Notes: a model not told the origin generated them from the sequence alone. A DNA stretch of 64,000 bases from a virus (IMGVR_UViG_3300027977_000006); one strand, 5' to 3'. Positions 1,935-24,600 are shown, numbered from the stretch's first letter. Translations and numbers: made by a program.

Positions 1935-3023
1935 TTAAGCTGAACAACCAAAACACTCAAACTGACTATCTTTTGGTTTCTTGGCAACATTTACTTGTTG
2001 TGTGGCTAATTTTGTGTTTGTTTCCAACTTTGACTTTGTCCTAGTGTAGTAAACACCTGTTTTTAACCCACCTTTCCAAGCATACATCAAAGCACTTGCT
2101 ATTTTCCCATATTTTGCATCAGCATGATATACGTTCAATGACTGTGATTGGTCAACATATTTGTTTCTAATGATGGCCAAGTCTAATAAAACTCTTTGTG
2201 GTATCTCCCAAACATCTTTGTATCTGAAACGAATATCTTCTGGTATATCAACAATATTTTGAATACTACCTTTGTTTTTAATAACTTTGTCAATCATTTC
2301 TGAATCCCATAACTCATGTTCAATCAATTCGTTTACAAGATATTTGTTAACAATCAAAAACTCACCTTGACCAACACGTCTTGTAAACAAATTAGCAGTA
2401 ACTGGCTCAAACGACTCAAATGAACCCAAAAGAATTGCTGATGAAGCTGTTGGCATAAGACCGAGAAGAAGACTGTTGTACATAGGTATTGGTTCTCCAG
2501 CTGGTTTTGGTGACCAACCTTCAATATAAGTTTCTCCAACAGAATATAAACTTCCTTCCCAAGCTGGATAGTTTTGTCCTTTTTCTTCAGCTATTTTCAT
2601 CGACTCTTCAACAGCAGCTTTATACATTGTTTCAAAAATGTCGTTGTTCCATTTCTTAGCTTCTTCGCTTTCAAACGAAATCTTCTTTTTTGCAAAGAAA
2701 TCAGCTAAACCAGCAACACCGATTGCTAAAGCTCTTTGGTCCAAACCAGCTGCTTCGCTCCAATCATCACTCCATTTATTTTTATCAATAACTTTATTTA
2801 AACCTCTAACCAAAACCCTTGTTGTTTTGTCAATTGATTTAAGTCCATTGTGTTCAGCTAAGTTTACAGATGCCAAAGTACATTGAGGTGTGTATTTTGG
2901 TTTTGAAGCTTGAAAAATCTCACAATTATGAACTAATATATTATTAGCATAAAAATTGTTAGTATTCTCAACTTGAATGTCATACACATCCATAGTTTTT
3001 TCTAATTTATTAATTTTAATCAT
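1935..3023 (-). CDS. nrdA: Ribonucleotide reductase class Ia alpha, C-terminal half preceded by split-intein IntC
   Basis: After VHN: CEIF, CTLASVNL, RALAIGVAGLAD, MPTASS, DQSQSLN, GLKTGVYY and terminal CFGC redox pair. Confidence 0.93.
   Translation of the reverse strand: MIKINKLEKTMDVYDIQVENTNNFYANNILVHNCEIFQASKPKYTPQCTLASVNLAEHNGLKSIDKTTRVLVRGLNKVIDKNKWSDDWSEAAGLDQRALAIGVAGLADFFAKKKISFESEEAKKWNNDIFETMYKAAVEESMKIAEEKGQNYPAWEGSLYSVGETYIEGWSPKPAGEPIPMYNSLLLGLMPTASSAILLGSFESFEPVTANLFTRRVGQGEFLIVNKYLVNELIEHELWDSEMIDKVIKNKGSIQNIVDIPEDIRFRYKDVWEIPQRVLLDLAIIRNKYVDQSQSLNVYHADAKYGKIASALMYAWKGGLKTGVYYTRTKSKLETNTKLATQQVNVAKKPKDSQFECFGCSA
2925..3023 (-). mobile_element. Split intein C-fragment (33 aa)
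   Basis: MIKINKLEKTMDVYDIQVENTNNFYANNILVHN|C: block F (VYDIQV), block G (HN), Cys+1. Confidence 0.93.
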
Positions 3024-3045
3024 ATTATTTATTTTTTATTAATTA

Positions 3046-4245
3046 TTAATTATTTATATATTCAAATTTAAAACCTTTATAAGTTTTATTTCTACCTTTA
3101 CATACTGCTAATACAGATGTTATTTTACCATCTATATATTCAGCAGCTGATTTTAATGAATCAAACTCGATAATATCACCGTTATTATCAATCCTTCTCA
3201 CTTTTCGTTGATTGTTACCTTTTTTAATATCAAATGTGTATTCTTCATTCTCCCATCTAAAAATATCAATAAAAGTGTTGTTATTTTTACATTTTCTTCT
3301 GATTACAGTTGGGTTTAAACCGATTTGTTCACTAGCTTCAAATACATTATTGAAAACTAATTCTATATTACTATCAATATCTTTTTTGTAATAAACTAAT
3401 TTAGAAATTCTAATAATACCATTTTTAGTTGTTTTAAACCCTCTGGATGAATCATCAGTAGGTTTTTTATAATCTGACCGTTTAGTTTTACTATAGACTA
3501 ATTCACTATCATTGTATCTAAAATAATAGCCTTTATATGTACCACCATATTTAATACATCGGTATATTAATGATTTAGTTTTAAATTCATATTTATTAAG
3601 TATATCATTAATATTTAAAATATCTATTTCTTCTAATGTTTTAGAATCAATCATAACTATTAAACGTTTAACTCTAGATTTAAAATTTTCTTTCATATTA
3701 TCTATACGCTCTTTAGTAAATTTCTTACCTTTATTCCAATGAACTCCATTAATTTTAGCTAAATAAGATGGATTAATTTCTATTGGTCTACCATACATAG
3801 GGTTTTTACTACCTTTAGTATTTTCACTATGTTTTTCCCTTATTTCTTCTTTTTTAGGATTATTATTAAAAGTATCACCACCAGTTCCACCTATAACAAT
3901 ATTAGTTAATAAACCACCTTCAGTAAATCGACCATAATAACCAATTAATTCTTTCTCAACTTTAAAAGCTTCATCTTCATTATCTGTTTCAAATATAACC
4001 TTAAAGTTAGGTTTGAAACCTAATCCAATTAATTTTTTAATCGTATTAGTTTTATGTGGGTTTATTTTACTACTGCGATTATCTTTTAATACATCAATAT
4101 AATGTGTTAAATGTCGTTTTCTATTATTTTTAGCGTTATAATCACCTTTACCTATATAAAAAGGTTTGTAATTTATTTCAGAATAATTATTACTATAATC
4201 ACCCATTACTCTATCATCTAATAAAATGTAAATATAATATCTCAT
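3046..4245 (-). CDS. Free-standing GIY-YIG homing endonuclease with NUMOD3/NUMOD1-type DNA-binding repeats
   Basis: YYIYIL...PFYIGKG...R...EAFKVEKELI...LTN...GG; KGSKNPMYG; repeated F.S...AA...C......GF.F.Y units; likely start MRYYIY at 4245. Confidence 0.88.
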   Translation of the reverse strand: MRYYIYILLDDRVMGDYSNNYSEINYKPFYIGKGDYNAKNNRKRHLTHYIDVLKDNRSSKINPHKTNTIKKLIGLGFKPNFKVIFETDNEDEAFKVEKELIGYYGRFTEGGLLTNIVIGGTGGDTFNNNPKKEEIREKHSENTKGSKNPMYGRPIEINPSYLAKINGVHWNKGKKFTKERIDNMKENFKSRVKRLIVMIDSKTLEEIDILNINDILNKYEFKTKSLIYRCIKYGGTYKGYYFRYNDSELVYSKTKRSDYKKPTDDSSRGFKTTKNGIIRISKLVYYKKDIDSNIELVFNNVFEASEQIGLNPTVIRRKCKNNNTFIDIFRWENEEYTFDIKKGNNQRKVRRIDNNGDIIEFDSLKSAAEYIDGKITSVLAVCKGRNKTYKGFKFEYINN

Positions 4246-4251
4246 ATTAAT

Positions 4252-4296
4252 AAATATACAGTACATAGTGTACTTTATACTATGTACTGTATATTT
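4252..4296. promoter_or_regulatory. 18-bp perfect inverted repeat immediately upstream of the endonuclease start
   Basis: AAATATACAGTACATAGT-gtactttat-ACTATGTACTGTATATTT; overlaps a TATTTAT motif, 6 nt from the ATG. Confidence 0.75.
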
Positions 4297-4304
4297 TTTT
4301 TTTA

Positions 4305-4616
4305 TTAATTAAAATTTGTATCTAACTCATCATCCTCTAGTAAATCACAAGCCATTACATAACCTCTATTTTTAGTGAATATCCTATGGTCTGGTGTACA
4401 AATAATCCTAACATTTTTTTCTTCATCAATAATTTCAAGTACTTCAGCATTATCTTTAGTTTTTATAGCACCTAATATTGGTTGAAAAGTATTATCTTGA
4501 CTTAAAACTAAAATATTTTTATGTTTTTCATAAAGTTTAACTACTTCTTCCATAGTTATTTTTTCAATACCACCGTTTTCATTAATGATTGTTATAATTG
4601 ATTCACCATTTAAACA
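4305..4616 (-). mobile_element. Split intein N-fragment (103 aa)
   Basis: SNLC|CLNGES (block A) ... CTPDHRIFTKNRGYV (block B TxxH) ... DLLEDDELD then stop. Confidence 0.93.
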
Positions 4617-5786
4617 ACACAAGTTGGATTGACAAATAGGGCCTATATTGGATTGCATATTTCTTTTGTTCGCATTGTCTTTAAACATAACATACGGTCT
4701 GCCACTTTCAACTTGTGCTTTAATTATGGCGTCAAATATTTCTTTTGGATTCACCTTTTTACCAATTCCCAAATCAACCGCTTTTTGATACTCTGTTTCA
4801 AATTCTTCACCCCAAAGAAGATGCAGTGGTGTTAAACCAGCTTTATTAATATCATTTGGACAGAACAAATACCAATCTTCACTTTTTTCAAGCTTTTGCA
4901 TAAACAAGTCGTTTATAACAACAGCAGTAAATAAATCACGTGTTCTTAATTGTTCATCACCAATTGGTAAAGTAAGGTCTAAGAAATCAAAAATGTCTCT
5001 ATGCCAAACTGATAAATAAAGAGCGCAACTTCCAGAACGTGAGCCTTGTTTGTAGAAACGCATTTTTGATTGAACCATATCTGCAAGTCTTACAACACCT
5101 CCAGCGTTGCCTTGGAATGAATGAACCAAGCTGTCTTTGCTTCTAAGTGGGTCTATAAGTAAACCAATACCAGAACCCTCTTTTGATGCAGACGCTATCT
5201 TTGTTAAAGTAGCTTCAATACCTTCAAAAGAATCTTCTTCCAAATGTGTTAGATTACAACTAACCATACCATTTCTTTTGTCCACACCAGCGTTTGTATA
5301 TGTTGGTGTTGCAAAGTTGGCTCTTTTGCTTTTTAATTCTTTTAAAAGTTCTTTTCTAGCTTCTTCATCATCATCGTGCAAATGATAAGCAACACGCTCA
5401 TACATGCATGAAGGAAGTTCAATTGGTGCCTTGTTGTTATCTCTTTTTGAATACTTCGAAAGAAATGTTGTCGCAGCAAAAAAGTCATAAGTCAAATCAA
5501 TTGGTTGTAGTTCTTTACCTACCAATTTTGATTGTCTACTTAATAGTATTCTACCACCTAATAAGGAGTAGTCTGGATGCTGAATGATTTTATCAGCAGC
5601 TTTAAAAGCGATGATTTCATCTATTTCTGTTGTTGTAATGTTATCGCTTATAAGCGGCATAACTTCCAAAAATAAAGAATCGGCATCAACATTTAGTCCA
5701 GTTGATTGTGTTTTAATCCTAGTTAGGATTTTGTTTGGCATAAACGCTTGTGTCGTTTTGTCTCGTTTAACTATTCTCATTCCCAT
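4305..5786 (-). CDS. nrdA: Ribonucleotide reductase class Ia alpha, N-terminal half fused to split-intein IntN
   Basis: ATP-cone-like IVKRD start, FATPTYTNAG, SCNL, GSGIG, QGSRSGSCALYL..WH.D, ESGRPY, QSNLC. Confidence 0.95.
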   Translation of the reverse strand: MGMRIVKRDKTTQAFMPNKILTRIKTQSTGLNVDADSLFLEVMPLISDNITTTEIDEIIAFKAADKIIQHPDYSLLGGRILLSRQSKLVGKELQPIDLTYDFFAATTFLSKYSKRDNNKAPIELPSCMYERVAYHLHDDDEEARKELLKELKSKRANFATPTYTNAGVDKRNGMVSCNLTHLEEDSFEGIEATLTKIASASKEGSGIGLLIDPLRSKDSLVHSFQGNAGGVVRLADMVQSKMRFYKQGSRSGSCALYLSVWHRDIFDFLDLTLPIGDEQLRTRDLFTAVVINDLFMQKLEKSEDWYLFCPNDINKAGLTPLHLLWGEEFETEYQKAVDLGIGKKVNPKEIFDAIIKAQVESGRPYVMFKDNANKRNMQSNIGPICQSNLCCLNGESIITIINENGGIEKITMEEVVKLYEKHKNILVLSQDNTFQPILGAIKTKDNAEVLEIIDEEKNVRIICTPDHRIFTKNRGYVMACDLLEDDELDTNFN

Positions 5787-5791
5787 TTTGT

Positions 5792-6745
5792 TTAAAATTC
5801 CTCATCAAAAATACCATCAATAGTTGTTGGAATGTCTACTCTGGTATATTCACCTTCTCTCTTTTCAAAGAAGTTATTTTTAGAAGACAATCCAATTCTA
5901 GACATATATTCTAACGGATTGCTAACCATAAATTCTCTTTGGCAACCAAAATCGTTTAGCACAATATCCGTAACATATTGGACATATTTTACCATGTCTT
6001 GTTTTGTAATACCTTGTAAACCATCTGGCATACTTTCTTCAACAAAAGCTTTTTCAATTTCATAACAACCCAATATAACTTTTCTTAACTCGTCAGTTGA
6101 CAACTTATAGTCATCTTTCAAATAGTTGTTATATAAATTAATAGCAAATTCATAATGGAATGTTTCATCCCTTAAAATTAATTCGTTCATTGCAGCTAAA
6201 CCTGGCATTTTGTTTCTGCTTCTAAACCAGAAAACCCCAGAAAATACGCTAGAGAATGCGATACCTTCAATACAAGCAAACGCTACCAATCTATGAGCAA
6301 ATGATGGATGGTTTATCCAGTTTTCAGCCCATGAAGCTTTTTTAGCCACTGCTTGATTGTTTTCCATTGAATTAAACAGCTCTTCTTTTTCGTGAAGATT
6401 TTTTATAAACGTTTCAATCAATAGAGAATATCCATTTGCGTGGACTTGTTCAATAAACGTTTGATGACCATAAAAATATTGAGCTTCCAATATTTCAACT
6501 TCATTAAGAAAGTTTGTGGCCAAATTATCAATAACCAACCCATCTGATATGGCAAAGAAAGCCAAAATGTTTTTAAGGTAAGTTTTTTCATTATCTTTTA
6601 GCTCATCAAATTTATCCTTACTCAAATCTGTTTCTTCAGCAACCCAAGTTTGTGATTCAGCTTTCTTATACATTTGCCACAAGTCATTGTGAATGATTGG
6701 GAAAATGGAATACCTTTTTTTAAGTGTTTTATCTTTTAGATACAT
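5792..6745 (-). CDS. nrdB: Ribonucleotide reductase class Ia beta
   Basis: FFAISD, EQVHANGY, EGIAFSSVF, RDETFH di-iron ligands; NFFE; C-terminal FDEEF. Confidence 0.96.
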   Translation of the reverse strand: MYLKDKTLKKRYSIFPIIHNDLWQMYKKAESQTWVAEETDLSKDKFDELKDNEKTYLKNILAFFAISDGLVIDNLATNFLNEVEILEAQYFYGHQTFIEQVHANGYSLLIETFIKNLHEKEELFNSMENNQAVAKKASWAENWINHPSFAHRLVAFACIEGIAFSSVFSGVFWFRSRNKMPGLAAMNELILRDETFHYEFAINLYNNYLKDDYKLSTDELRKVILGCYEIEKAFVEESMPDGLQGITKQDMVKYVQYVTDIVLNDFGCQREFMVSNPLEYMSRIGLSSKNNFFEKREGEYTRVDIPTTIDGIFDEEF

Positions 6746-6768
6746 TTTTAATAATTTAAATTTGTTTT

Positions 6769-9270
6769 TTATTCTTCGTTTATAACCGCTTTTCTTTTTG
6801 TACTGGCTAAAACTTCATTTACCCTTGCTTGGTCGTTAGTTTCGACATCTTTTTTGTATTCAGTTTGGGTTCTTGCTCCTTTACTTTGGCCCATATCTAT
6901 CTGAATCCTAGCATTGTCAAAGGTTATATCTTCAAAGATAATACCATCCTTACCAAAACGTGATTTAAGTATGGCCATTGTTGCAGTTCCATTTTCTTTT
7001 TGGTCTAGAGTTTTTGCGATTGACACAATAAAGTGACCTATCTGACCTTTTTTAATCGAACCACCCATTTGGTCTGCTTCTACTACGTTTGCCTTTATTG
7101 AACTTCTGTTTCCTTGTACCGCTGTCCAACCAGCAATATCTAATTCACCTAACATAGCTTCAAATTGTCTCATAACACTACCTTCACCAACATTCGCATC
7201 ATCATATTTTCTTGATGGTTGAACACAGTCGATATAATCCAATAGAACGATGTCTGGTCTAAAACCTTCAGCAATTTTTTTCCTGATATACTGTCTTATA
7301 ATAGGTATGGTTGTCCCATCACTAGAAAATTTTTTAAGTTTTAAGTTACCTTTTCCACCTTTTGACTCTTTTTGCTTGTGTTCACATAAAGACGTGATTT
7401 CGTCTTTATGTAAAGATAAGCTATTCAAGTCAATACCAGTCCAACAAGAAATATGTTTTCTTTGAATTACCTTTGGGTTATCTTCAAAGAAGATTTGTAA
7501 AACTCTGTAACCATCGTTCATTGCTGTGTTAGCAATTTTGGTCATCATGGTCGTGTTGTGGGTGACGATGTAATCATCAGTAACATATAAATGTTCTGGG
7601 TTTTCCACCATAATACATTTAGCTTCTTCTTCACCGTAATACTCGATTGATTTAATAAATTTATTATTAGAATACTTAGTTCTATTTTTAAATTTATTTA
7701 GTTTTCTACTTAACCTACTTGGTATAATTCCGTTATCTGGGAAACTAAAGGAAATACGATAATAATTATTACAAATATTATCACCATATTTTCCAATCTT
7801 TTCAGAAATTGAAACTCTACCACCTAAAGATAAAACTAATTCTCTAATATCTTTAGATAACTGTTCAGATGTTGTTGAAATCTCTATTCTATGCTCATCA
7901 ATATACCCATCTGTATCAACTAAACCTTGTAATAGGCTAACTCTATCAGATATAGAAGAATAAAGGTAGTTTTGTGGGATAAACTTAGTTTTAGAATTAG
8001 TTCCGTATAAGTCTAATTCGATTAAAGAATCTTTAATCCCTAATAATGAAACCTTTTTTAAATAGCGTTTAACTAAAACTAATTCACCATTAATTTCTTT
8101 TTCAATATCTCTAATTTGTTCTTTAATTGATAAGTTGTTATAAATTTTAGCAACCTCAGTAATTATTTCTTCATCTTTGGTAACAAAATTCGGCTGATTA
8201 GATGATGTAATACACCCATCACCTAATATAACACCTAATAAATAAGGGTCAATAATCAAATCTTTTTTTATGAATTCGATTGGTGATACATTGGGTATTT
8301 TATAATTCAATCGTCTTCCATTCCAAACTTTAACACTATTAATCATATCAATAGTTTTTACAACTTTAAATGAATTATCAGATTGTAAATAAATTTGTTT
8401 ACCATCTTTTTTTGTTTTTCTATTTCTTTGATTAATTGTGTTTACAGACCATAAATGCTCAGCATCACATAATGTTTTAGTACCATCGTTAAATTTAACT
8501 TCGTATATAGGTCTTTTTCCTTGTGGGAATGTACCAATAACTTTGGTTGGTTTTCCGTCCCTGCCAATAACATAGTCACCTAAATTAATATCACCCATAG
8601 TTACCCAACCATTAGGTGTTAATATATTAGAAAATAATGGCTGTGCTTTACCGACACCAAACGGTGCCAATATTACAGCCAATTCACCTTTAGATAAGCC
8701 ACCATCCATTACTTCATCCAAGCCTTTTATGCCAGTTCTTATTGGTTTTCTAAAGTCATCAACCAAAACATCTTTGATATTATCGAAAACATCCATGCCG
8801 TCATCCTTATTGTCGCCATGCTCCAATGCTTTTCTAAGTATTGTTTCACATTGTTCGTAGTTTTCAATGTCACCAATATCAATTATTTTTTGAATCTGTT
8901 TGATGGATTTCTTCAACTCTTGTTGTTTACAAAACTTCATAGCGATGTCTTGTATTTTAAGAGCATCATAAGAACTAGCCTCTTGAACCTTGCTAAGCTG
9001 TGTTAGGATATACTTTCTTTGTAAATCCTCTGTCACATCGGCTAACAGTCTAATTTTAACACTTCCTAAATCAGGAACAATATCATCTTTTTCTTTGGCT
9101 TCTTTTATGGCAGCAGCTATTACTCTAAGATATGGGTCACTAAAGTAATTAGCATCTACAATATCAACAATTGAATTGGCAAATCTATTATCCGTAAGTA
9201 ATTGAGCCATTAGTCTAAACTCATAGTCTAAACCCAAATAACCCAAACTATCTCTATCTATTTTCGCCAT
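6769..9270 (-). CDS. dnaB: Replicative DnaB/gp41-like helicase containing an intein
   Basis: TGIKGLD..MDGGL.KGEL, Walker A APFGVGK|T, LDYID, TAVQGNR, KSRFG; likely start MAKIDR at 9270. Confidence 0.92.
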   Translation of the reverse strand: MAKIDRDSLGYLGLDYEFRLMAQLLTDNRFANSIVDIVDANYFSDPYLRVIAAAIKEAKEKDDIVPDLGSVKIRLLADVTEDLQRKYILTQLSKVQEASSYDALKIQDIAMKFCKQQELKKSIKQIQKIIDIGDIENYEQCETILRKALEHGDNKDDGMDVFDNIKDVLVDDFRKPIRTGIKGLDEVMDGGLSKGELAVILAPFGVGKAQPLFSNILTPNGWVTMGDINLGDYVIGRDGKPTKVIGTFPQGKRPIYEVKFNDGTKTLCDAEHLWSVNTINQRNRKTKKDGKQIYLQSDNSFKVVKTIDMINSVKVWNGRRLNYKIPNVSPIEFIKKDLIIDPYLLGVILGDGCITSSNQPNFVTKDEEIITEVAKIYNNLSIKEQIRDIEKEINGELVLVKRYLKKVSLLGIKDSLIELDLYGTNSKTKFIPQNYLYSSISDRVSLLQGLVDTDGYIDEHRIEISTTSEQLSKDIRELVLSLGGRVSISEKIGKYGDNICNNYYRISFSFPDNGIIPSRLSRKLNKFKNRTKYSNNKFIKSIEYYGEEEAKCIMVENPEHLYVTDDYIVTHNTTMMTKIANTAMNDGYRVLQIFFEDNPKVIQRKHISCWTGIDLNSLSLHKDEITSLCEHKQKESKGGKGNLKLKKFSSDGTTIPIIRQYIRKKIAEGFRPDIVLLDYIDCVQPSRKYDDANVGEGSVMRQFEAMLGELDIAGWTAVQGNRSSIKANVVEADQMGGSIKKGQIGHFIVSIAKTLDQKENGTATMAILKSRFGKDGIIFEDITFDNARIQIDMGQSKGARTQTEYKKDVETNDQARVNEVLASTKRKAVINEE
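7555..8646 (-). mobile_element. Class 3 (Ala-start, WCT) intein with LAGLIDADG endonuclease, 364 aa, in the DnaB Walker A motif
   Basis: GK|AQPL...EHLW...LLGVILGDG...LLQGLVDTDG...AKCIMV...VTHN|T. Confidence 0.92.
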
Positions 9271-9326
9271 TTTTTTTTTTTTATCTTTAAAAACGTTGTT
9301 ATGGATAAATATCACAAAGTAGTCGC

Positions 9327-9827
9327 TTAGGCAACCACTTTGTTATATTTTTTTTTGCTTAATGAATCTCTAATCTCAAACATTATAACTGGTATAATTT
9401 CTTTTATAACCACAGCATAACGTACTTTTGGGGGAAAATAATTACCAGAAAACACTGATTTTGCAACACTTTTCTTATCTATCTTAATCTCAAACTGAAA
9501 GTCATCAATTTTTTCGAAAATGTTTCTAGGTTCTTGGTCTGGTTGAACAAAATAAGGGTTGTAGTTATTCCAAAGATAATCCTTCGATTTATTTTTCAAA
9601 TAGTTAGGTATGATACCCATGCTACCATGATAACCATTGTTCATTCCGCAAATAGCATCCATCAATTCTTTCATCTCCCACGAGCCAATACTATTTTCGT
9701 TAAAATCACGAATGTTAAAATACCTTTGGCAGATAATATGATTGTTTATGTAAAGAACGAATTCAAAACGTTGTTCTTCAACTTTCTTTTGGTCAAATGT
9801 TCCTGTGTTTACTTTTGTGTTTGTCAT
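9327..9827 (-). CDS. Hypothetical protein
   Basis: 166-aa ORF tightly packed in the replication operon. Confidence 0.75.
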   Translation of the reverse strand: MTNTKVNTGTFDQKKVEEQRFEFVLYINNHIICQRYFNIRDFNENSIGSWEMKELMDAICGMNNGYHGSMGIIPNYLKNKSKDYLWNNYNPYFVQPDQEPRNIFEKIDDFQFEIKIDKKSVAKSVFSGNYFPPKVRYAVVIKEIIPVIMFEIRDSLSKKKYNKVVA

Positions 9828-9843
9828 AATTTAAATTTAAATG

Positions 9844-10893
9844 TTAAAAATTGTTTTCTCTGTCTATTAGTTTTTTAAATGGTTCTAAAAAGGTAGCGTA
9901 CCTAGTCTCACCTAATGCTTTGTCTAACCCATCTCTTTTCATCATGATAAAAACATTTTTGAGGTCTCTACCCGATGAGTCAAGGGTTCCGTCTATCAAA
10001 TGTTTTAATTCTATTACACCGTTTTCAGTTAACATTGGTCTTGACAAGTTTACCAGCCTATCATTAATCTCATAAATCTTGTCTTTTTGAACACCATCTG
10101 TAACCTTGTTTATGATATTATCTAGGATTGTAAGAGGTTTCTGTTTGTTGGTTACTCTATCACTTTGTAACCTTTTTGCTTCTTGGATTACGTCATCTAC
10201 ACTTAGTTTACGTTGTTTTAAATCTGGAAATAAAGAAAGTAATTTTGTCTCGCCTAAACCTTTGATGCCTTTTATGCTATCACTAACATCTCCAATCATG
10301 GTTTTTATAAGAACAGAATTATCTTTGTGATGGCAAAAGTACGAAGAATAATTGGTTAAACCAACGTATTCTTTTAAATCTATAAAATAAATTCTTATTT
10401 CTTCAGATATTAACTGCAAAAAGTCTCTATCTGTCGACACAATTGTAATTTGTTCGTTTTCCTTTTTATTTAAACAATAGTACGCTATGAAGTCATCACT
10501 TTCAATAACTTCATGTTTTAACTGTCTAACATACATTTCGTTTAAATAGTCCCAAACCATCTTTCTCTGTTTTAGTTCAGATAGTTCTATTGGTTGGGTG
10601 CCGTTTATATAATCTTTACCACGGCCACTTTTGTATGGTTCGTATATTTCGTATCTTAGCTTTCCGCTATAGTTTCCATCCCAGAAAACATAAACCTTAT
10701 GGTAAAGGTCATCTGTTAAGATTTTTCGTAAAATAGTGAGGAATGAATACAAACCACCAATGTGTTCACCACTACTGTTGTATTCTCCTTTGGCACCGAA
10801 ATACCCTACTTTAAATAGGGCATTTCCGTCTACCAAAAGTGTATTTTGTTTCTTTATTATTTTTTCACCATTACGTGGTGGTCTTTTATTCAC
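9844..10893 (-). CDS. 5'-3' exonuclease / T4 RNase H-like flap nuclease
   Basis: LLVDGN, VFWDG, YKSGR, ESDDFIA, STDRDFLQL, GDVSDSIKGIKGLG. Confidence 0.92.
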   Translation of the reverse strand: MNKRPPRNGEKIIKKQNTLLVDGNALFKVGYFGAKGEYNSSGEHIGGLYSFLTILRKILTDDLYHKVYVFWDGNYSGKLRYEIYEPYKSGRGKDYINGTQPIELSELKQRKMVWDYLNEMYVRQLKHEVIESDDFIAYYCLNKKENEQITIVSTDRDFLQLISEEIRIYFIDLKEYVGLTNYSSYFCHHKDNSVLIKTMIGDVSDSIKGIKGLGETKLLSLFPDLKQRKLSVDDVIQEAKRLQSDRVTNKQKPLTILDNIINKVTDGVQKDKIYEINDRLVNLSRPMLTENGVIELKHLIDGTLDSSGRDLKNVFIMMKRDGLDKALGETRYATFLEPFKKLIDRENNF

Positions 10894-10923
10894 AAACTCA
10901 TTATTAATAGGTTAAACAATAAA

Positions 10924-12021
10924 TTAAGCCATCATGTCTTCTTTGCTTAATCCGATTTCTTCTTTTTCAATCACAAAATCATCATACTCTGTGTTCAAAT
11001 GAGCTTTTATGAACTCTTTGTGTTCTTCTTTGTAGTCATTGATTTTATCTGGGTTCCAATAACCATGTGGTGTTGATGCAATCTTACCTTTTTGTTCAAT
11101 ACCGTTAACTTGATTCTTTTCACATCTGATTCTTGTTTCAACACCGAACTGAAACTCTTCACCAGCAAATATAGCTTTTAATTTTTCAGTACTATGTGTA
11201 AGAATACCACCAAAATGGAAGATAAGTCTTGGGGAATAAAAGAACGCTTCACCACCCTTATGTTTGATAACTTTGTTTTCATTATCTAACCATATTTGCT
11301 GAACTACAGCAAATGTAGCAGTATAAGGCGCATCTTCTCTTCTAGAAGCTGGAATTCTATAATTAATTAGTGATTTAAAGCATGTGGCCAAAGCACCAGC
11401 AGTCCATTGATTGTTGGTAGTTTTTGATGTTGCTCCTTTGAAACAGTTTATTGAACCAACTGAATCCCAGAAGAAAGCAACATCTCTTGGTAATCTTCCT
11501 TCTTGTTGTGCATCCAATATTGTATGCATGTGGTATGATATGTCCTCAACAACTGGTTCATATCTTAAAGGTTTTGTACCCATTTTGCTATGTTGATGGT
11601 CATAACAAACGTACATTTTTAAAAGGTCTGGACCTTGTAAGAAAATGAAATCACCACGATAATTTAATTCTCCAGTTTCTTCATCAACATATTCTTCAAA
11701 TTGAACTCCAATATTTTTTGCATGTGCCCAATTCCAGTTTCCTTCAGTTTCATAAATAATCGGTAGGATTCCCAATTTTTGACATCCAGCCACACCTTCA
11801 TAAATCGCAGTTGATTTACCAGTGTTTGAGTATCCTCTAAAACTAGTAAAATATCCAACTGGAATCCCTGGAACTTTAACCGCATCATGGAACGCTTCTG
11901 AAAGCGGTATCCATGCTAATTCTTTTTCTTTTACTGTAAAATTGAGCCCTTGTGTTTTCTTAAAATCTTCTAAGTTAAAATCTTTTTTCTCAATAGGTTT
12001 TTTAGTAGGTTTCTTCGCCAT
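10924..12021 (-). CDS. RecA/UvsX-like recombinase
   Basis: GIP.G..T.F.G.SNTGKST Walker A, ETE, WDSVG Walker B, GGEAF, EKNQV. Confidence 0.8.
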   Translation of the reverse strand: MAKKPTKKPIEKKDFNLEDFKKTQGLNFTVKEKELAWIPLSEAFHDAVKVPGIPVGYFTSFRGYSNTGKSTAIYEGVAGCQKLGILPIIYETEGNWNWAHAKNIGVQFEEYVDEETGELNYRGDFIFLQGPDLLKMYVCYDHQHSKMGTKPLRYEPVVEDISYHMHTILDAQQEGRLPRDVAFFWDSVGSINCFKGATSKTTNNQWTAGALATCFKSLINYRIPASRREDAPYTATFAVVQQIWLDNENKVIKHKGGEAFFYSPRLIFHFGGILTHSTEKLKAIFAGEEFQFGVETRIRCEKNQVNGIEQKGKIASTPHGYWNPDKINDYKEEHKEFIKAHLNTEYDDFVIEKEEIGLSKEDMMA

Positions 12022-15273: not shown

Positions 15274-18200
15274 TTAACTGCATGTTTTTACTTGAACGGA
15301 TGATTGGCTTATTGCTGGTGGGTTTACAGTGCTACCAGCTAGTACATTATTAACGCCAGCTCTAGTACCCCATGTAAATAAACTTTTACTTAATGATAAT
15401 TTATATGCGCCAATGTTATTTTTTAAACCATCAACAATATCTTTGTAATAACCGTTTGTTAAAGTATCTACAGTTGCTTTTAAACCAGCATCTTTTGATG
15501 CGTAGTTTTTTACAAATGCTTTTCCTTTAGAACAAGAAAAGGCTGTTGATGATGGGCTACCTTGTGTTGTGTTGAAAGGGTTCCAAGCCGCTTTAGCGCC
15601 TTCAGCTTGTCTCCAAGCATACAAAAATTTCAAGTTTTCTGGTGTTGCTTGGGCACCCAAACTAGTTAATATTTGGGTGTAAAATTGAATATCAGCCGAT
15701 GATGGTTGAACGACTGAAATGTTTTTATTTTCCAACTTATAAGTTTCTTCGGTTCCATCTAAGTTTTTATCCACTTTTTTATAATCGCATGTTGTATAAA
15801 CCGCTTCTGTATTATTTTTATCGTTAGGGTTTCTAACAAAATCTTTATACGGTTTATTGGTGCTGACTGTAATCGTTTTAACTTTAGGTCTCTGAGATAA
15901 TATACACGCAGCACTTTTACCGTGATATTCAAAATGCCAAAATTCTTCAAGGCCAGTATCATCTCTTAAAGCTTCTGGTATTATCCAACCATATGTGTAT
16001 CCATTTTCTAATAACCAAACTATAGATTCATTTATGTTAAAATTATATCCTTGCCCAACATTTGGTTTGCTATCAACATAATTTTTTATGATAGCACCAC
16101 TTTTTGTTAAGAACTGAAAATCAACCGCAATACCCCATCCATGATTTGAAGTGCCTGGTCTAGCAACACATCTTCTACCTTCACATGTTGCTTCATCATA
16201 AAGTCTTTGTTGTTCCTCTATAGTTCTAAAACCGCTATTTATGTATGCGTAAACGCCACTGTTACCAGCAAAACCTTGACTTTTCATCCATACAACCCAA
16301 TCTGTTAACATTTGATTAAGGGCTGTTACAGCTTCTGGGATTAATTGATTTTTAGCTTTATCCCCAGCTATTGTGTTTGAAATTCCAGCTGGTGTTTGAA
16401 TAGGTAATAAACCTAAAGAATCTCGATTACCATTATTTCCACCTCTATCTATTAATGTTAATACTATTGGTGGGAACGCTTTTGAACCTAGTGGTCTAGA
16501 TGGTTCTGAAGGGTTTACATTGGCGGCATTAATGGTATCAATCAAAGACATGTATAAATCACCAGCTTCAAATATTGGTGTTACTGATTTTCTTATTCTA
16601 CTTCCAGTAAAATTAGTTGTCATATGATTTGGTTTTATGCTATGTTTTACTCTAGTAATAACATAAGCACCATGAAACATAGGTATGTTATCCAATTGGA
16701 AATACATCATCGGTTGAATCATAGCGTTGCCCATCATTTCAACCTCAACTTTATAACTTCTAACAGAATAAACATTATAGATGTTTTGACCAGCTAAAGT
16801 TCTGTATGTTTCAGCACCTTTTTTAGATATATCCTCCATTATTTGTAATGATTCAGCTGTTTCGGCAAACTCACTTTGGTCTAAAACTATATCTTTGAAT
16901 ATGTTTTGGTTTTGCTGGCCAAATCTAACTTTGAAAAATACTGTTGGGTCTTCATAGTCATTGCTTGTTCTGGTTAAATCTGGTGGTATATCACCATCCC
17001 TAACGTCAAAGCCATCATTTGGGTAATTTGAACCCTTAAAGTCTAAATGTTTAGAACTTTGTCCAACGTACATACAAATAAATGATGGTCCAGAAACGCT
17101 TTCTGAATCTGAATATGTTGGGAATGGTTTAAAAACACTTTGTACTGTTTCTGGATTTCTATAGTTTATAAAAGATGGGAGGGCAATAAAGTCAAAATTA
17201 TTTGATGATAAGATAGACGTAACCATATCATATAAACTAGTATTTGGTTGCGTCTTCATAATATCATGTATTGGGAATGGGTTAACAGCAAATCTATCTC
17301 CAATATCTTCAAAAGACCTGCTTATAAACCTAAAGCTATCTATTAACCTAAGTTTTGGTTCGTTAGAACCTGTTCTTTTTTTAGCCAACGATAAATCAGA
17401 GTCATTCCTACCACCACATTGAAAAAATATGCTGTCACCATCTTCAGATTCTGTTATCCATTTATCATACATGTTTTTACATGTTCTGTATAACATAAAT
17501 TTTATAAGGTTATCATCTGAAGTTCCAAATATGCTATTCTTAATTTCTTTTTTTTGTTGCTCTTCTGTTATTGGTTCCATACCTTTAAAATTTTCTAAAA
17601 AGGTATTAATATATAATTCAGTATTTTCTTTTGAAATTGTGATATAACTTGCAGTACTAGTATTTACTGGTAATTTTTGTTTGTCCCATATTCTATATGA
17701 CATATTAGAAATGACAACTTCTTTCTGTAAAACACTAATCAATGTATTGGTAACGGGTGTGTCATCTTTTATCTCCAAGAAATAATTGTTTTCATATTCA
17801 CTATCTATGTATGGATTAAAAATAATATAATTATCAAAATTTTTACCATAACGGTTTTTTACGCTTAATGTTTCCAAAGAATCATTAGTTATTGAACCTT
17901 TTGTTGTTTGATAAGCTGTGGACCAACTACCTTGTGGTGTTAATTCTAATTCAGACTTAATTGCATTCCAATCATCACTTTTTGCGAAATCCAAAAATGA
18001 ATTTTTAAATTCTTCTTTTGCTTGTTTTGGTAGTTTTAATAAGACTTCATCAAGTTTTCTATATTTATAACCAAAACCACTAACATAATTATCATTAATA
18101 AATGACATCGGAACTATAGGAAAACTCCTTAAAGTATCCAAATTTGTTGTAAAATTTACAAATTCATTTACAGTTAAATATTCATCTTTCTTTGGATATA

Positions 18201-21200
18201 CATCTGGGTGTGATGTTGGTGAATTTGTTCCAAATGTTGGTAATAAAGAATTTGTACCATCAAAAAAAACTATCGGGTCTGATGTTTCTTCATATCTCCA
18301 AAGTAATCCACCGATAAACGCAACCCACAATTTTGGAGCGTATACAAATCCAGCCCTGTACTTAAATAAATTTAAAATCTCTGTATCTACATCATTACCT
18401 TGACTAAAAGAAGTAAAAATTGTGTTTGTTTTTACCGCATCAAAAGTAAAAGTGTTATAATTTTTTTGTATTAATCCATTCCAAGGTAGTGTATGCAAGA
18501 ATAAAAAAGCTTTAGACTCTTCTTTAGTTTGACCATAATAAAGATTACTACCAAATAAACTAATCGGTACAGATACATCGCCAATCCCAATAAATCCTTC
18601 ATCAAATATGTTAAAATGTACATAAGGATATGATATATTTTGTTCGCCTTTTTTAACATTAGACATTAAATCTATCGTTTTACCATAATCCATGTGCAAC
18701 ATCTTATCGGATTCTTTAAACATTTCAACTATGTTATTCAAGCTACTTGAAACTTTGTATTTGTCTGGTTTCACATCAAACTGAGACGATGTTGGTTGGC
18801 TTTGGTTAGCTTGATTGGATGCTGACCTAAACTTACCTAAACCATTGGCAAAAACAGATTTATCAACAGCGTTTGAATAAAATAGCGTACTAAGTGGTAA
18901 TCCATCCAGTGCTTCATCACCCCAATTTAATTGGCTAAATTCTTGTATACCGTATAAACCACCAAAGCAATTAAAACCGACACTATTGATGTTATCTTCA
19001 ATATCTTTTAATTTTTCTAAATCTATTATTGATTCTGTATTTATACCAGTAGGTAGTGAATAATTGGCCGCACCATTAACGTATGAATCTTTGTCAACGA
19101 TTCTAAGATATATTGCACCATCATCATCTGGGTTTGTTGGATTTGTTGGGTCTTCATAAAAATAACGATTTCCCAAAAATAAGCTACCACTCTCTTGTTT
19201 TTCTTTTAATTGTGTAAATCTAGTTGGCCATACAACTTCATTAAAACTATCATTTATTGGAAAATATTTATTTATGTTTTTTTCAGGTAATATATATCTA
19301 TAATCATAAACCCCATTTTCTTCTACAAGTACAAATGAATCATTACCATTAATTTTTCCTTTTGTTGCTTTTATAACACCAGTAGCACCTGATAACTGAG
19401 ACAATGACTGAACGACTGTTGCTTTATTTGGTGAATCGTTCATAACAGCTTGAGCTTCAAAATTTGCCATCGCTATTATTTCATCTGATGTTAATGTAGT
19501 TTCCTTGTTTGTAATCCCCAAAAATGTTGCAGCTCTTATTAACACCAAAACTAAAAGCTCGTCTTTTGTTTTAGGATTAATTCTGCTATATGGTGCCAAT
19601 TCGTTTTCGAAAACTCTTGTATCTAAAGGATTTGACGGAACCCAATTTGATTTTAAGGATTCAGCCAACCTGTCCATGTCATTTTGTGTTTGAGCTTGTT
19701 CGATAAAAGCTTTTAATAAATCTTTTATAAAAAAAAGTTCTGGTACGTTATCTGGATTGTCTAAAACGCCTGGTTCTCCTAAATAAGCATCTTCTAATGT
19801 TTTATCGGTTTCTTTTCTATAATCTGGCCATGGATAATACTTTGGTATAAGATTATTTTGACCATTATTAGTTGTCGCATCAGTATCTATATCACTATTT
19901 CCTTTATTTTTAAAAACTTTTTCTAATTCATTTCGTCTAACGTCATCTGTGTCAGATGATGCATTTCTTGAAACCTCATAAATACAATACATGAAAACTT
20001 CAGCAGCTGTTGTAAGTATTTTTACAATATTTCTTATTGATGGGTCAAAGTCTAATTCTGATTTAACTTGCAAACTTAACCCTTCAGCCAAATTCTTTTT
20101 AGTTGCGTCAATGTCTGAATTTATTTTGGTTAACTTGTCTTCTAGTTGTTTAAAAAGATTTGTATTATCAACAACATTAAATTCATAATCATCTTGCAAA
20201 ACATAATTATTGTTGGTTATGTAAGTTAATAAATCTTTTCTAGTTTGTTCCGCATTTGTTGAGCTGACCAATTTTTTCTTAGCTTCAGCATAATCATTTG
20301 TTGGGTCTTTTAAAATTTTTAATGTTAATTTATCGTATTTTTTTATATTGATAAATTCATTTTTATCTAAAGTTATATTATTAATTTCATTAAAAGAATC
20401 GATTAGTTTTCCAACTGATTCTCTGTAAGTTGTTGCAGCTTTTTCATAATCTTTGTTTGTTGAATTTACAATCGCAAAAGAATATGTGGCTGATTGTTTG
20501 TTTATATCAATTATTTCACTAAAATTTTGTATTGTTCCTCTTATATCAGTGATAGTGCCTATCTTACCTTCCGCTAATTTAAGTTGGCTGTATTCTTCAC
20601 TGTTAGAAAGAATTCTCCCAACTTCTTCATTTATTTTTGAAATTTTATCATATAGTTCATCTAATGTTAATAAATTAGGGTCTTCTTCTTTTAACTTACG
20701 GTACTTACTCTCACCAATTATTGTGTATGGTATAGCTTTTAAATAACCAATTAACATATCTGACAACATTGCATAAGTATAACCAACAAAACTAGCTGTT
20801 ATTTCAAAATTACCAGTTTGTGAATTAAATCTAGATGTAAATTTTGTCATGTGCAGACAATATTCAACTGGCTGACCATAATAACCTTTTATTTTTAACT
20901 TATATAGTGGGTATGGGAGTTGAAAAAAGACTGAATAATCATTTTCATTGTTAGCTGTTTTTTCTTCATTTTGAAAAATAGCACTGCCTCTAATATCAAT
21001 AAATTGAATTGTTATCATTGGCGCAAATGAAGAATTAAAATCTATATCTATTGATGTTATGCCTAAATTTTCTTTAGAATTTTCATCACCAAAACTAGTT
21101 GTTAGCTCAGTAAACTTGGTCGTCAAAAAACGTTTATCACCAAAAGACTCGCCTTCTATAAAATTTATTTTAACCCTTTTATCATTTAGTGCAACATTAC

Positions 21201-21351
21201 CAGATGATTTTGTACTAAGAAGCGTTCTGCCTTTTTTTTGTGTTGATAGTTCAACTGATATTGTTAAATCCTCATATGGTACAAAAAAATTAGAACTAGA
21301 ATCTTGTCCATCAACACTGTTTGGGTCAATTATGTTTAATCTATTGGCCAT
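15274..21351 (-). CDS. Giant baseplate hub protein (gp27/GpD-like) with M15 (VanY-like) peptidase and a C-terminal lysozyme-like domain
   Basis: VEMMGN..IQP.....G.Y.I..VKH.I.....T hub motif; SGFRT..EQ..LY...ARPGTSNHGWGIAVD...EFWHFEY; W..AEG...NPFNTT. Confidence 0.8.
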   Translation of the reverse strand: MANRLNIIDPNSVDGQDSSSNFFVPYEDLTISVELSTQKKGRTLLSTKSSGNVALNDKRVKINFIEGESFGDKRFLTTKFTELTTSFGDENSKENLGITSIDIDFNSSFAPMITIQFIDIRGSAIFQNEEKTANNENDYSVFFQLPYPLYKLKIKGYYGQPVEYCLHMTKFTSRFNSQTGNFEITASFVGYTYAMLSDMLIGYLKAIPYTIIGESKYRKLKEEDPNLLTLDELYDKISKINEEVGRILSNSEEYSQLKLAEGKIGTITDIRGTIQNFSEIIDINKQSATYSFAIVNSTNKDYEKAATTYRESVGKLIDSFNEINNITLDKNEFINIKKYDKLTLKILKDPTNDYAEAKKKLVSSTNAEQTRKDLLTYITNNNYVLQDDYEFNVVDNTNLFKQLEDKLTKINSDIDATKKNLAEGLSLQVKSELDFDPSIRNIVKILTTAAEVFMYCIYEVSRNASSDTDDVRRNELEKVFKNKGNSDIDTDATTNNGQNNLIPKYYPWPDYRKETDKTLEDAYLGEPGVLDNPDNVPELFFIKDLLKAFIEQAQTQNDMDRLAESLKSNWVPSNPLDTRVFENELAPYSRINPKTKDELLVLVLIRAATFLGITNKETTLTSDEIIAMANFEAQAVMNDSPNKATVVQSLSQLSGATGVIKATKGKINGNDSFVLVEENGVYDYRYILPEKNINKYFPINDSFNEVVWPTRFTQLKEKQESGSLFLGNRYFYEDPTNPTNPDDDGAIYLRIVDKDSYVNGAANYSLPTGINTESIIDLEKLKDIEDNINSVGFNCFGGLYGIQEFSQLNWGDEALDGLPLSTLFYSNAVDKSVFANGLGKFRSASNQANQSQPTSSQFDVKPDKYKVSSSLNNIVEMFKESDKMLHMDYGKTIDLMSNVKKGEQNISYPYVHFNIFDEGFIGIGDVSVPISLFGSNLYYGQTKEESKAFLFLHTLPWNGLIQKNYNTFTFDAVKTNTIFTSFSQGNDVDTEILNLFKYRAGFVYAPKLWVAFIGGLLWRYEETSDPIVFFDGTNSLLPTFGTNSPTSHPDVYPKKDEYLTVNEFVNFTTNLDTLRSFPIVPMSFINDNYVSGFGYKYRKLDEVLLKLPKQAKEEFKNSFLDFAKSDDWNAIKSELELTPQGSWSTAYQTTKGSITNDSLETLSVKNRYGKNFDNYIIFNPYIDSEYENNYFLEIKDDTPVTNTLISVLQKEVVISNMSYRIWDKQKLPVNTSTASYITISKENTELYINTFLENFKGMEPITEEQQKKEIKNSIFGTSDDNLIKFMLYRTCKNMYDKWITESEDGDSIFFQCGGRNDSDLSLAKKRTGSNEPKLRLIDSFRFISRSFEDIGDRFAVNPFPIHDIMKTQPNTSLYDMVTSILSSNNFDFIALPSFINYRNPETVQSVFKPFPTYSDSESVSGPSFICMYVGQSSKHLDFKGSNYPNDGFDVRDGDIPPDLTRTSNDYEDPTVFFKVRFGQQNQNIFKDIVLDQSEFAETAESLQIMEDISKKGAETYRTLAGQNIYNVYSVRSYKVEVEMMGNAMIQPMMYFQLDNIPMFHGAYVITRVKHSIKPNHMTTNFTGSRIRKSVTPIFEAGDLYMSLIDTINAANVNPSEPSRPLGSKAFPPIVLTLIDRGGNNGNRDSLGLLPIQTPAGISNTIAGDKAKNQLIPEAVTALNQMLTDWVVWMKSQGFAGNSGVYAYINSGFRTIEEQQRLYDEATCEGRRCVARPGTSNHGWGIAVDFQFLTKSGAIIKNYVDSKPNVGQGYNFNINESIVWLLENGYTYGWIIPEALRDDTGLEEFWHFEYHGKSAACILSQRPKVKTITVSTNKPYKDFVRNPNDKNNTEAVYTTCDYKKVDKNLDGTEETYKLENKNISVVQPSSADIQFYTQILTSLGAQATPENLKFLYAWRQAEGAKAAWNPFNTTQGSPSSTAFSCSKGKAFVKNYASKDAGLKATVDTLTNGYYKDIVDGLKNNIGAYKLSLSKSLFTWGTRAGVNNVLAGSTVNPPAISQSSVQVKTCS

Positions 21352-21691: not shown

Positions 21692-24600
21692 TTAATACCA
21701 TTCTTGGAATTTATCACCAACATCTGGAACTTTAACAGCAGCTGGCGCAACTAATTGACCGTTGTAGAACACTTTTAACATATAATTACCTCTAATTAAG
21801 GTACCAGAAGTAATTGTTCCATTGTCTACTTTATCACCCATAAAATATTGTGAACTGAATAATGCAAATGCATTCTTACCATCACCTCTATCATAATTGG
21901 CCGATGTTATAATATCTTCAACTCTACTAGTAGTTGTTGGGTTTGGAACAACATCTAATGTTATTCTAATACCCTTATCTAAAAATGCTTTAAATTCATC
22001 TTCGCTTATCAATAATGTTTGTGTATTTCCAGAATTTTGGAAAATACCTTCTTGTTTTAACCCTACTTGTATAGTAAATTGTTGAAGGTCTCCAAATTGT
22101 TCAATTTTTACATAAGATATACCTGTAATTTTTGGTTCTGTTGTCCCTGTGCTAGGTGGTGCCTGTGGTGCTGTTTTAGCAGCTGCGTTAAGTTCTTCAT
22201 CACAAGCTTCAGTTTGATTTATTTCTGGTTCAATTTGTTTTTCAGATATAACAGTGGTTGTTCTGAACTTATTTATGTTCAAAGTACCATTAACTATCTC
22301 GTATGCTCTATTTGTACTTACTTGAACTGTATCTAACGTATTAGTACTAGCATCACCAGTATTTTCTAATCTTGCAACTGTTGTAGGTGCAGGTTCAGAT
22401 TTTTTAATATAATCAGCTCTTGGGTCGTAAACATGTGTATTCGCATAGTAATTAAACGACAACGCATTCTGCAATTTATTTATTGGGCCTAATAGCGATG
22501 AACCACCAACAATTTTAAGAGATAATGTTACATTTGCAATCATTGGTTGAACACCTATACCTTCTGGATTTAAATCCCAAACAAGTGGTTCATAATCAAT
22601 TGATAAATTATCTATTATTACTTTTGTATGGAAGAAGTCACCAATTCTAAGAATACAAATTGGTGCTCTACCAAAAGCTAAATTATCTGTGTCAAAGTTT
22701 TCAGTTGTTGGGCCTTGTCTAGTACATTGTTGTAAGAATGTTAACCTAGAATTTAACCCTTCTGGTGTCATAGAGTGAAAGGCTGGGTGAAAATATCTAA
22801 TTCTTTCTCTAAATGAATCAAAGACAAAGTTATCAGTTTGTTTTAATTTTTCAAAATACATAGCTTCATTATAGAACCTATTAGTTATTTTTGAATTTAC
22901 ATCAAAGTTTTGTTTTTTAACAACTGGTGTTGGTTTTACTGTTTCTTCAGTGGCCAATGTACTATCAAATTCAATTAATACTTCAGCTCTTCTGTCTTCT
23001 TTACATTGTTTTTGGTCTGGTTTTCCATCTTTAACACAACCAGTATTTGCACCTAATGGTTTGCTAGTTATTGTGGCAACCAATCTATTATCTTGATTGG
23101 TTATACCCATAGCTTTCAAATAGTCATATATTGATTTTCCTCTACCTTGTGCTAATTTTTCGTTAGAAACTTTATCACCTTGAACACTGGCAAATGCAGA
23201 TATCTTTATTTTACAGTATTTGCACTTGCTATCCATATAGGCTTTTAAAGCAGGTAAGAAATTAGGGTCTGATAAACCACTGTAAGATGGGCCATCAATT
23301 TTTATTGGAGTTTTATTTAACCCATAATTATAACCATCATAATATATTGTAAATGGAGCATTAGGTATTGGATTTCCATTGTTGTCTTTTGGTGGTGTAA
23401 CTTGTCCTTGAACATTACCTATACCAAATCCTTCTCCTGGTTCTTGTACTGGTGTGGTACCAACACTACTATTACCGTTATTGAAATCATTATTCAATCC
23501 ATTTTCGTAACCAAGAAGAATTATGTCATCCAAAGTTATTACATCATTAGGAAAGTAAACATCAAATTTAATATCTGGTGGTCGTGGTGTTGCCAAAACT
23601 TGTTGTTGTGGTTCTTGTATTTCTTTTTCGACAATTGAACTTATTTCAGAAACAGTAAGTCTTTCAGCAAATCTATTATTAGGTTCAACACAACCAGCAA
23701 CAAATGAAGCAACATAATTATCTTGTGGTCCTAATGCACCTCTAAATGAATTCATATAACTTGAATGGTCGACAATTATACTAAAAGACAAACTAGCTGA
23801 CCTTTCTGTGTTGTTATATGTATAAACTGGTTCACCTCTACCTATAAAATTTGTTGATTCCCAATTAACAGAAGAGGATTCATTAAATTGAATATTATAA
23901 GGTGGAAACCACATTATTCTGCCTTTGCTTCCAGTAATTAAATCACCTCTTCCAGCTTCCACAGGTGGTAAGTTAGGTAGAAAACCTTGCCAAGCTAAAT
24001 TTTCAATAGATAGCATATAGTTTTTTGGGTCAGATACACTAGTTAAGTTTCCTTCACTATCATAATCAGTATATTTGTCATCAACATATGGTGCGACTTT
24101 AACAAACCCATTATCATCCAATGTTGAATTTAGTGTTTGAAACCTGAAATAATTTTCACCAAATAATTTTGATGTGTCATTAAGACCAGAATTTCTAACC
24201 ATTTTTGATACTTGGTCGTATCTATCTAAAGTAGTCCAACTTCTACAATATGTGTCTTTGGCTTCCGCTCCTTTGTCAACGTATCCAATATCATTGTATA
24301 GACTACCAGCTAAAACAGCACTACCTTTAGATATACCATCAGCATTTGCTGTTGTTATTTGTGATGATGTATAACCCATTTCACCTTTAACAGTGACTAT
24401 ATTTTTCATACCTTTACTGTTAAAAAGTTTTTGTGTTTTAACGAGCAAAGATTTTCTATCACCAATAAGTGGTTCATAATCAGGACTTTTATTAACAGCT
24501 AAACCATCTCCTCCAAATGAACCCCAAGAAAAATTAACATCATTTATTCTTCTATCTGTATATCTACCTATATTTGTATGACCTACAGAAGCTTGTTCTT

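Follow-up and report, generated by a model that had tools for sequence, protein, structure and literature searches.

In a viral DNA of 64,000 nucleotides (nt), IMGVR_UViG_3300027977_000006 (the whole stretch is hereafter called the window), the ribonucleotide reductase (RNR) gene nrdA is divided between two separate open reading frames (ORFs). The first ends in the N-terminal half of an intein (IntN), the second begins with the C-terminal half (IntC), and a GIY-YIG endonuclease gene lies between them. We conclude that this is very probably a fractured class Ia nrdA that is rebuilt by a trans-splicing split intein, carried on a GIY-YIG homing cassette. The evidence comes from the position of the insertion, the splicing residues and the selection acting on them, and the movement of the whole block between nrdA alleles.

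Organization of the fractured nrdA locus

All genes of the locus lie on the minus strand, and the two halves of nrdA each have their own start and stop codon. The features are as follows (lengths in amino acids, aa).

5786..4305, minus strand: nrdA-N + IntN ORF, 493 aa, ending QSNLC/CLNGES...CTPDH...DLLEDDELDTNFN and a stop codon
4617..5786, minus strand: nrdA N-extein, with ATP-cone, all-alpha domain and first barrel part; its last residues are ...QSNLC, so that the thiyl-radical Cys occupies position -1
4616..4308 (4305..4616 with the stop codon), minus strand: IntN, 103 aa; starts CLNGES, holds CTPDH and has an acidic tail
4252..4296, minus strand: conserved hairpin of ~18-20 bp, downstream of the IntN stop and ahead of the endonuclease start
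4266..3046 (406 aa), likely 4245..3046 (399 aa, MRYYIYIL), minus strand: putative GIY-YIG endonuclease ORF
3024..3045, minus strand: AT-rich 22-nt spacer before the IntC start, for which no structure is predicted
3023..1935, minus strand: IntC + nrdA-C ORF, 362 aa; starts MIKINKLEK...NNILVHN/CEIF
2925..3023, minus strand: IntC, 33 aa; ends ...NFYANNILVHN (blocks F and G, terminal His-Asn)
1935..2924, minus strand: nrdA C-extein; starts CEIFQ (+1 Cys, catalytic Glu), followed by the remaining barrel and the C-terminal CFGCSA
2903..4622, minus strand: mobile block, comprising IntN, hairpin, endonuclease gene and IntC with ~6 nt and ~22 nt of extein
5792..6745, minus strand: nrdB (RNR small subunit), directly upstream of nrdA-N; Pfam Ribonuc_red_sm, E=3e-80

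The original prediction had described an nrdA-N ORF with a 103-aa IntN, a GIY-YIG gene, and a 33-aa IntC fused to nrdA-C; the ORFs, their sizes and their Pfam domains agree with this. It had placed the second half about 1.3 kb downstream, and the gap between the nrdA-N stop and the IntC start is indeed 1281 nt. A 38-nt spacer separates the nrdA-N stop from the ORF 4266..3046. The nrdA-N start is more likely at 5780 (MRIVKRD) than at 5786, as in the 491-aa database counterpart P0151. The GC content is 23-25% across 3000-4500, compared with 31-37% in the flanks.

In the N-terminal ORF, Pfam identifies the ATP-cone, the RNR all-alpha domain and barrel positions 1-213, followed by positions 3-90 of the 155 in the Intein_splicing hidden Markov model (HMM). 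The C-terminal ORF matches HMM positions 124-155 and then barrel positions 205-523. The stretches of this HMM covered by the two halves (3-90 and 124-155) are complementary. The C-extein aligns with yeast R1 residues 429-748, and human and yeast R1 are the best PDB matches of the NrdA exteins. The ATP-cone, the all-alpha domain, the ten-stranded barrel, the N/C/E triad and the adjacent nrdB assign the host gene of the intein to class Ia NrdA. Since nrdB adjoins nrdA-N, the operon is of class I.

Insertion directly after the thiyl-radical cysteine

In alignments to solved R1 structures, Cys390 of the N-terminal ORF falls on the thiyl-radical Cys (C429 in human, C428 in yeast), and the first C-extein residue (+1 Cys) falls on yeast C429. 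The intein therefore follows the radical Cys immediately, in the register NLC/CEI. In sixty-odd related viral contigs nrdA is uninterrupted and reads QSNLC-I-EVFQ, with exactly one codon (Ile) at the place of the +1 Cys. The spliced product would read QSNLC-C-EIFQ and would keep the N-x-C-x-E spacing, and the change from Ile to Cys beside the radical Cys would be the sole scar of splicing. A Cys-Cys dipeptide at this position is compatible with RNR activity, because yeast R1 (Rnr1) naturally reads SNLCC.

The original prediction had proposed this same parse, with the spacing restored by splicing. It is upheld by the R1 alignments, by the empty-site alleles with Ile and by the bridging contig from run X14 described below. 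The parse SNL/CCLNG, in which the intein would precede the Cys as in NrdA-2, was rejected: with it, the N-x-C-x-E loop would be one residue short and block A would be displaced by one position.

Splicing residues and purifying selection

The residues of a class 1 intein are complete: C1 in block A, TPDH in block B (T-x-x-H), the terminal His-Asn, and the +1 Cys. C1 is invariant across 68 related IntN database clusters. TP[DE]H is found in 66 of these, with TYDH and TSDH in the remaining two, and HN/C is invariant in every IntC copy read from related loci. Together with a HINT fold suggested at the sequence level by the Pfam halves and by matches to the NrdJ-1 structure 8ubs, these residues assign the pair to class 1 (canonical) inteins.

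Both halves are under purifying selection. Against diverged copies, IntN has a ratio of non-synonymous to synonymous substitutions (dN/dS) of 0.13-0.31 and IntC one of 0.03-0.14. Comparison with uninterrupted alleles gives 0.04-0.05 for the exteins, and comparison among fractured alleles 0.065-0.13.

The original prediction had further stated that IntN ends acidic and IntC starts basic. The first part stands, as IntN has a net charge of -9 and an acidic tail. The second holds only weakly, IntC being +2 over its first 9 residues and -1 as a whole.

Movement of the cassette between alleles

A near-identical copy of the cassette is found in a second viral genome, L002 (IMG/VR UViG_3300036985_005913). 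The exteins of the two genomes share ~76-80% DNA identity and 83% protein identity, whereas identity between the cassette proteins is 98% for IntN and 100% for both the endonuclease and IntC. The block of near identity extends from 4622 to 2903, with ~20 differences in 1720 nt (~99% identity), and ends at the intein boundaries plus ~6 nt and ~22 nt. In genome pairs compared for both parts, the synonymous divergence (dS) of the cassette is 0.5-1.1, lower than that of the exteins, which is 1.4-1.7 or saturated.

A 1413-nt contig from a drinking-water metagenome (run X14) joins position 4627 to position 2915 and skips 1711 nt. Between the joined ends it has 19 letters, which in the coding sense give N-L-C-I-E-V, and in its flanks 18 of 1393 nt are mismatched (~98.7% identity). 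This contig is a nearly isogenic uninterrupted nrdA allele. The block thus moves as a unit, and seems to have done so recently.

Related loci hold the cassette in reduced forms. In L005 both intein halves are kept, 19 nt apart, and the endonuclease gene is absent. Only the last ~36 endonuclease codons remain in L001, and the last ~93 in L007. In one lake sample (run X8), endonuclease-gene variants ~90% identical to the window (positions 3424-4257) are present beside the identical form, so several cassette variants co-occur in one sample.

The last ~270 nt of the N-extein (4617-4890) are 86-91% identical to the closest uninterrupted alleles (L008 and L009), compared with 95-98% before this stretch. 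The stretch looks like a co-conversion tract.

A different intein occupies the neighboring codon boundary in another group of loci (L013-L019), whose exteins are 93-96% identical to those of L005 at the protein level. It lies one codon upstream (SNL/C...HN/CIEV), and its endonuclease is unrelated to that of the window, with weak PD-(D/E)xK-type matches that fit the Vsr-like family of Dassa et al. This NrdA-2-type cassette, at 7168-8688 of L013 and also in L015, L016 and L019, reads SNL/CISEDS...VHN/CIEV and has a 346-aa PD-(D/E)xK-like endonuclease.

In L002, nrdA (6001-11612) is fractured twice. At the first break it has the split intein and GIY-YIG gene known from the window; at the second, MPTAS/SAIL, it has a different split intein, with an unassigned 426-aa ORF (9740..11020) between the halves. 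The NrdA of this phage would take three polypeptides and two trans-splicing reactions.

The endonuclease gene and its upstream hairpin

The middle ORF has two Pfam matches, each with a cut-off of 27 bits: a LEM-3-like GIY-YIG domain (PF22945, 28.9 bits) and, at the C-terminus, an I-HmuI NUMOD-like DNA-binding domain (PF22083, 27.9 bits). The sequence contains the motifs YIY...YIG...R..H...E...N. ATG 4266 is ACG in L002, whose ORF starts MRYYIYIL, and ATG 4245 is conserved in four loci; the start is therefore most likely at 4245, giving a protein of 399 aa. The dN/dS of the gene is 0.15-0.32. Database searches return 43 endonuclease clusters that match over the full length, down to 40% identity, and none of them has a name; cultured phages are matched through the GIY-YIG domain only. 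For several of these clusters, the longest contig has the same size as that of an IntN cluster at a similar degree of divergence, which suggests that endonuclease and intein have diverged together to ~40-50% identity.

Upstream of this gene lies a hairpin (4296..4252) with a minimum free energy of -27 kcal/mol (z=-5.2; 0 of 200 shuffled sequences fold as well). It ends 6 nt before ATG 4245 and covers the non-conserved ATG 4266. Across four loci (the window, L002, L003 and L010) two of its pairs change between AU and GC on both sides, so that the stem is kept. Hairpins upstream of endonuclease genes have been described in fractured-gene loci (PMC2677866). The hairpin of the window resembles those but lacks the exact TATAAATA found in many of them; its loop reads TATAAAGT. 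A T4-type late promoter TATAAATA at the endonuclease start was considered and rejected, as the actual sequence there is TATTTATTAATATG. With 18 copies in the window, where 13.4 are expected, the TATAAATA motif is not enriched; a copy at 3051-3058, upstream of IntC, consequently carries no weight.

Proposed mechanism and alternatives

In the mechanism that we propose, two polypeptides would be made, N-extein-IntN and IntC-C-extein. The acidic IntN and the IntC would associate into a canonical class 1 HINT domain. Cys1 would attack the peptide bond following the thiyl-radical Cys, the N-extein would pass to the +1 Cys, and the terminal Asn would cyclize. The product would be a NrdA of 717-719 aa reading ...SNLC-CEIF.... 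Because the break lies in the active-site finger loop, NrdA activity should need splicing and not mere association of the halves. During co-infection the GIY-YIG enzyme is expected to cut an uninterrupted nrdA near the insertion site, after which the whole IntN-endonuclease-IntC block would be copied into the empty allele. The hairpin probably limits expression of the endonuclease; it could act as an attenuator or terminator downstream of nrdA-N, or it could mask the region around the start.

Several points weigh against this reading. The case for trans-splicing is made at the level of sequence, from which splicing and its rate, cleavage by the endonuclease and the role of the hairpin are all predicted. 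Taken singly, the intein halves score 23.8 and 27.3 bits, below the Pfam gathering cut-off of 35.8, and IntC is not clearly basic as a whole (net -1). The ~99% identity to L002 and the ~98.7% identical empty allele indicate that the cassette may have arrived recently, so the low dN/dS of the exteins against empty alleles says little about function after insertion. No Shine-Dalgarno motif is found ahead of IntC or of the endonuclease gene, which may simply be related to the host. For the lower-identity stretch 4617-4890, no donor is found among the sampled intein-bearing alleles, none of which is closer there.

It is unlikely, on balance, that the intein splices while the GIY-YIG protein no longer homes, being inactive or in another role, and that the cassette spread by ordinary recombination between co-infecting phages. 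Such a history would account for the persistence of the versions with a truncated endonuclease or none (L001, L007, L005), and the endonuclease, whose cleavage function is predicted, scores barely above the Pfam cut-offs. The gene is nevertheless under purifying selection, its GIY...YIG...R...E...N motifs are visible, and it has apparently diverged along with the intein, to judge from the matching contig sizes. The ends of the mobile block, within ~6-22 nt of the intein boundaries, also fit break repair at the site better than a random crossover.

We give little credence to the view that the gene was recently broken and is non-functional or decaying, with the phage relying on the host RNR. The youth of the cassette in this genome, seen in its ~99% identity to L002 and in the near-isogenic empty allele, is what such a view would expect. 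Yet both halves are intact ORFs, the adjoining nrdB is intact, and the endonuclease-less allele L005 keeps both intein halves intact. Moreover, ~30 clusters share the fractured layout, and their exteins have diverged to ~75% nucleotide identity at a dN/dS of only 0.065-0.13.

Least credible of all is that the intein halves are mere high-affinity docking domains of a non-covalent two-chain NrdA like the intein-less split NrdA of Aeromonas phage Aeh1: a fragmented phage NrdA held by interaction domains is on record (PMC3045599, as described in PMC2677866), but here all splicing residues are kept under purifying selection, the native Ile is replaced by a nucleophilic +1 Cys that only splicing would need, and the break separates the radical Cys from the catalytic Glu, so that an unspliced 136-aa HINT domain would occupy the active-site loop.

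Comparison with known split inteins

The layout of a fractured gene, with a split intein and a free-standing endonuclease gene between the halves, was described by Dassa et al. 2009 (PMC2677866). The original prediction had likened the locus to this class, and the likeness holds: the layout matches, and the closest solved structure is that of NrdJ-1 (8ubs). IntN matches 8ubs with E=2.7e-15 (46 of 89 aligned residues identical) and IntC with E=3e-4 (~17 of 33 identical). The database sequence P0192, one residue away from the published NrdA-2 IntN, is 49.5% identical to the IntN of the window, and the IntC halves are ~55% identical.

NrdJ-1 (GOS metagenome; Dassa 2009; PDB 8ubs/9omb) shares the after-Cys register, the split position, the acidic IntN tail DDEL and the fractured-gene locus. 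NrdJ-1, in contrast, sits in a class II NrdJ and has an obligate Ser at +1, whereas the window pair sits in a class Ia NrdA, has Cys at +1 and has an IntC that, at 33 aa, is shorter. In the seven NrdA split inteins (NrdA-1 to NrdA-7) the insertion immediately precedes the thiyl Cys; in NrdJ-1 it is shifted by one residue towards the C-terminus (PMC2677866). Like the window pair, NrdA-2 and its group belong to a class I NrdA in phage fractured genes, with a homologous intein and a negatively charged IntN. They lie one residue upstream, where the thiyl Cys itself serves as +1 nucleophile and splicing leaves no scar, whereas the window pair would leave the change from Ile to Cys.

The split nrdA of Aeh1 is not known to be broken at the thiyl-Cys junction used in the window. 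It likewise consists of two pieces with an endonuclease gene (mobE) between them and hairpin-type control of the endonuclease (PMC2677866). It has no intein, its halves assemble non-covalently and its endonuclease is of the HNH type, in contrast to the split intein and GIY-YIG gene of the window. The split inteins gp41-1, gp41-8 and IMPDH-1 have the same genomic layout and canonical split site in different host genes. The structure of gp41-1 (6qaz) matches the IntC of the window only weakly (E=0.03), and the charge polarity of gp41-1 and gp41-8 is opposite to that of the window pair (PMC2677866).

That the intein is new had also been proposed, and comparison with its characterized relatives reveals near-identity to none: at ~50% identity to NrdJ-1 and ~50-55% to NrdA-2, the pair is new. 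What it would add to an arrangement known since 2009 is a Cys+1 split intein of NrdJ-1 register in a class Ia NrdA. Pinto et al. 2020 give the junctions as SNL/CNE for NrdA-2 and NPC/SEI for NrdJ-1, and report that NrdA-2 splices both in cis and in trans and that NrdJ-1 and NrdA-2 do not cross-react. Orthogonality of the window pair is therefore plausible, but not predictable. Its IntC interface is very similar to those of NrdJ-1 and NrdA-2, so cross-reaction is possible. The splicing half-life of NrdJ-1 is 26 s.

Distribution of the intein family

At 90% identity, ~30 clusters carry an nrdA-N fused to an IntN at least 64% identical to that of the window, all of them with the after-Cys junction. 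More distant NrdA lineages also read NLC/C. The before-Cys junction is found in cyanophage-like NrdA, in some other NrdA and in some class II enzymes. Among 68 IntN sequences placed in a tree, that of the window belongs to a clade of 32, all after-Cys (support 95/86). The two registers cluster in this tree; the best tree needs 4 register changes, but only 1 is forced by well-supported branches.

Two sequences, P0159 and P0168, were considered as contiguous versions of the window intein and rejected, as they carry a different, additional intein at GMIS/CNLTH. This is a third intein site in nrdA, at an active-site Cys, and it is occupied beside a C-terminal IntN. The insert is a contiguous mini-intein in one of the two and a LAGLIDADG-bearing intein in the other.

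Phage context

Among the other products of the window are the sheath of a tail, the wedge and hub of a baseplate, helicases and a UvsX-like recombinase. Related contigs are as long as 300-360 kb. The runs that contain the stretch are lake-water and freshwater metagenomes, and no RNA run is listed among them. The source is an uncultured myovirus of lake water and probably belongs to the jumbo phages. Megablast with the locus as query gave no match among 50,697 phage records. By protein, the closest cultured-phage nrdA genes are those of Cellulophaga phages, at only 37% identity; with the missing Shine-Dalgarno motifs, they give a mere hint of a host among the Bacteroidota.

A second intein is present in the window. 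It is contiguous, 364 aa long, bears LAGLIDADG motifs (7555-8646, minus strand) and lies inside a DnaB/gp41-like helicase (9315..6769), where it breaks the Walker A loop (GVGK/.../TTMM). It starts with Ala, and its Trp (HLW), Cys (KCIMVE) and Thr (VTHN) are as expected of a class 3 intein. Three very large ORFs are also found on the minus strand, at 15274-21351 (2025 aa), 21692-25945 (1417 aa) and 52072-56847 (1591 aa).

Implications

The arrangement was described in 2009, and current understanding is not overturned. NrdJ-1 is a widely used ultrafast split intein, and the window pair is a natural relative of it, with Cys at both +1 and -1. As a further ligation tool, possibly an orthogonal one, the pair is a reasonable candidate.

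A further, more speculative reading, which we hold tentatively and consider rather doubtful, is that the lineage serves as a natural test bed in which split inteins have co-evolved. The window pair would then be a fast, Cys+1 intein of the NrdJ-1 class, orthogonal to NrdJ-1 and NrdA-2, the two trans-splicing reactions of L002 would not cross-react, and rival cassettes would compete one codon apart. If this were true, L002 would combine the same pair with a second, unrelated split intein and assemble one NrdA from three polypeptides. A GIY-YIG cassette on the C-terminal side of the radical Cys and a PD-(D/E)xK cassette on its N-terminal side would stand against each other in near-identical phages.

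One phage lineage displays every stage of the homing cycle: empty, freshly invaded, occupied and diverged, with a truncated endonuclease, and with the endonuclease lost and the intein still split. The same lineage also holds a competing cassette one codon away. Because all of these are present together, the origin and persistence of split inteins can be tested on real sequences.

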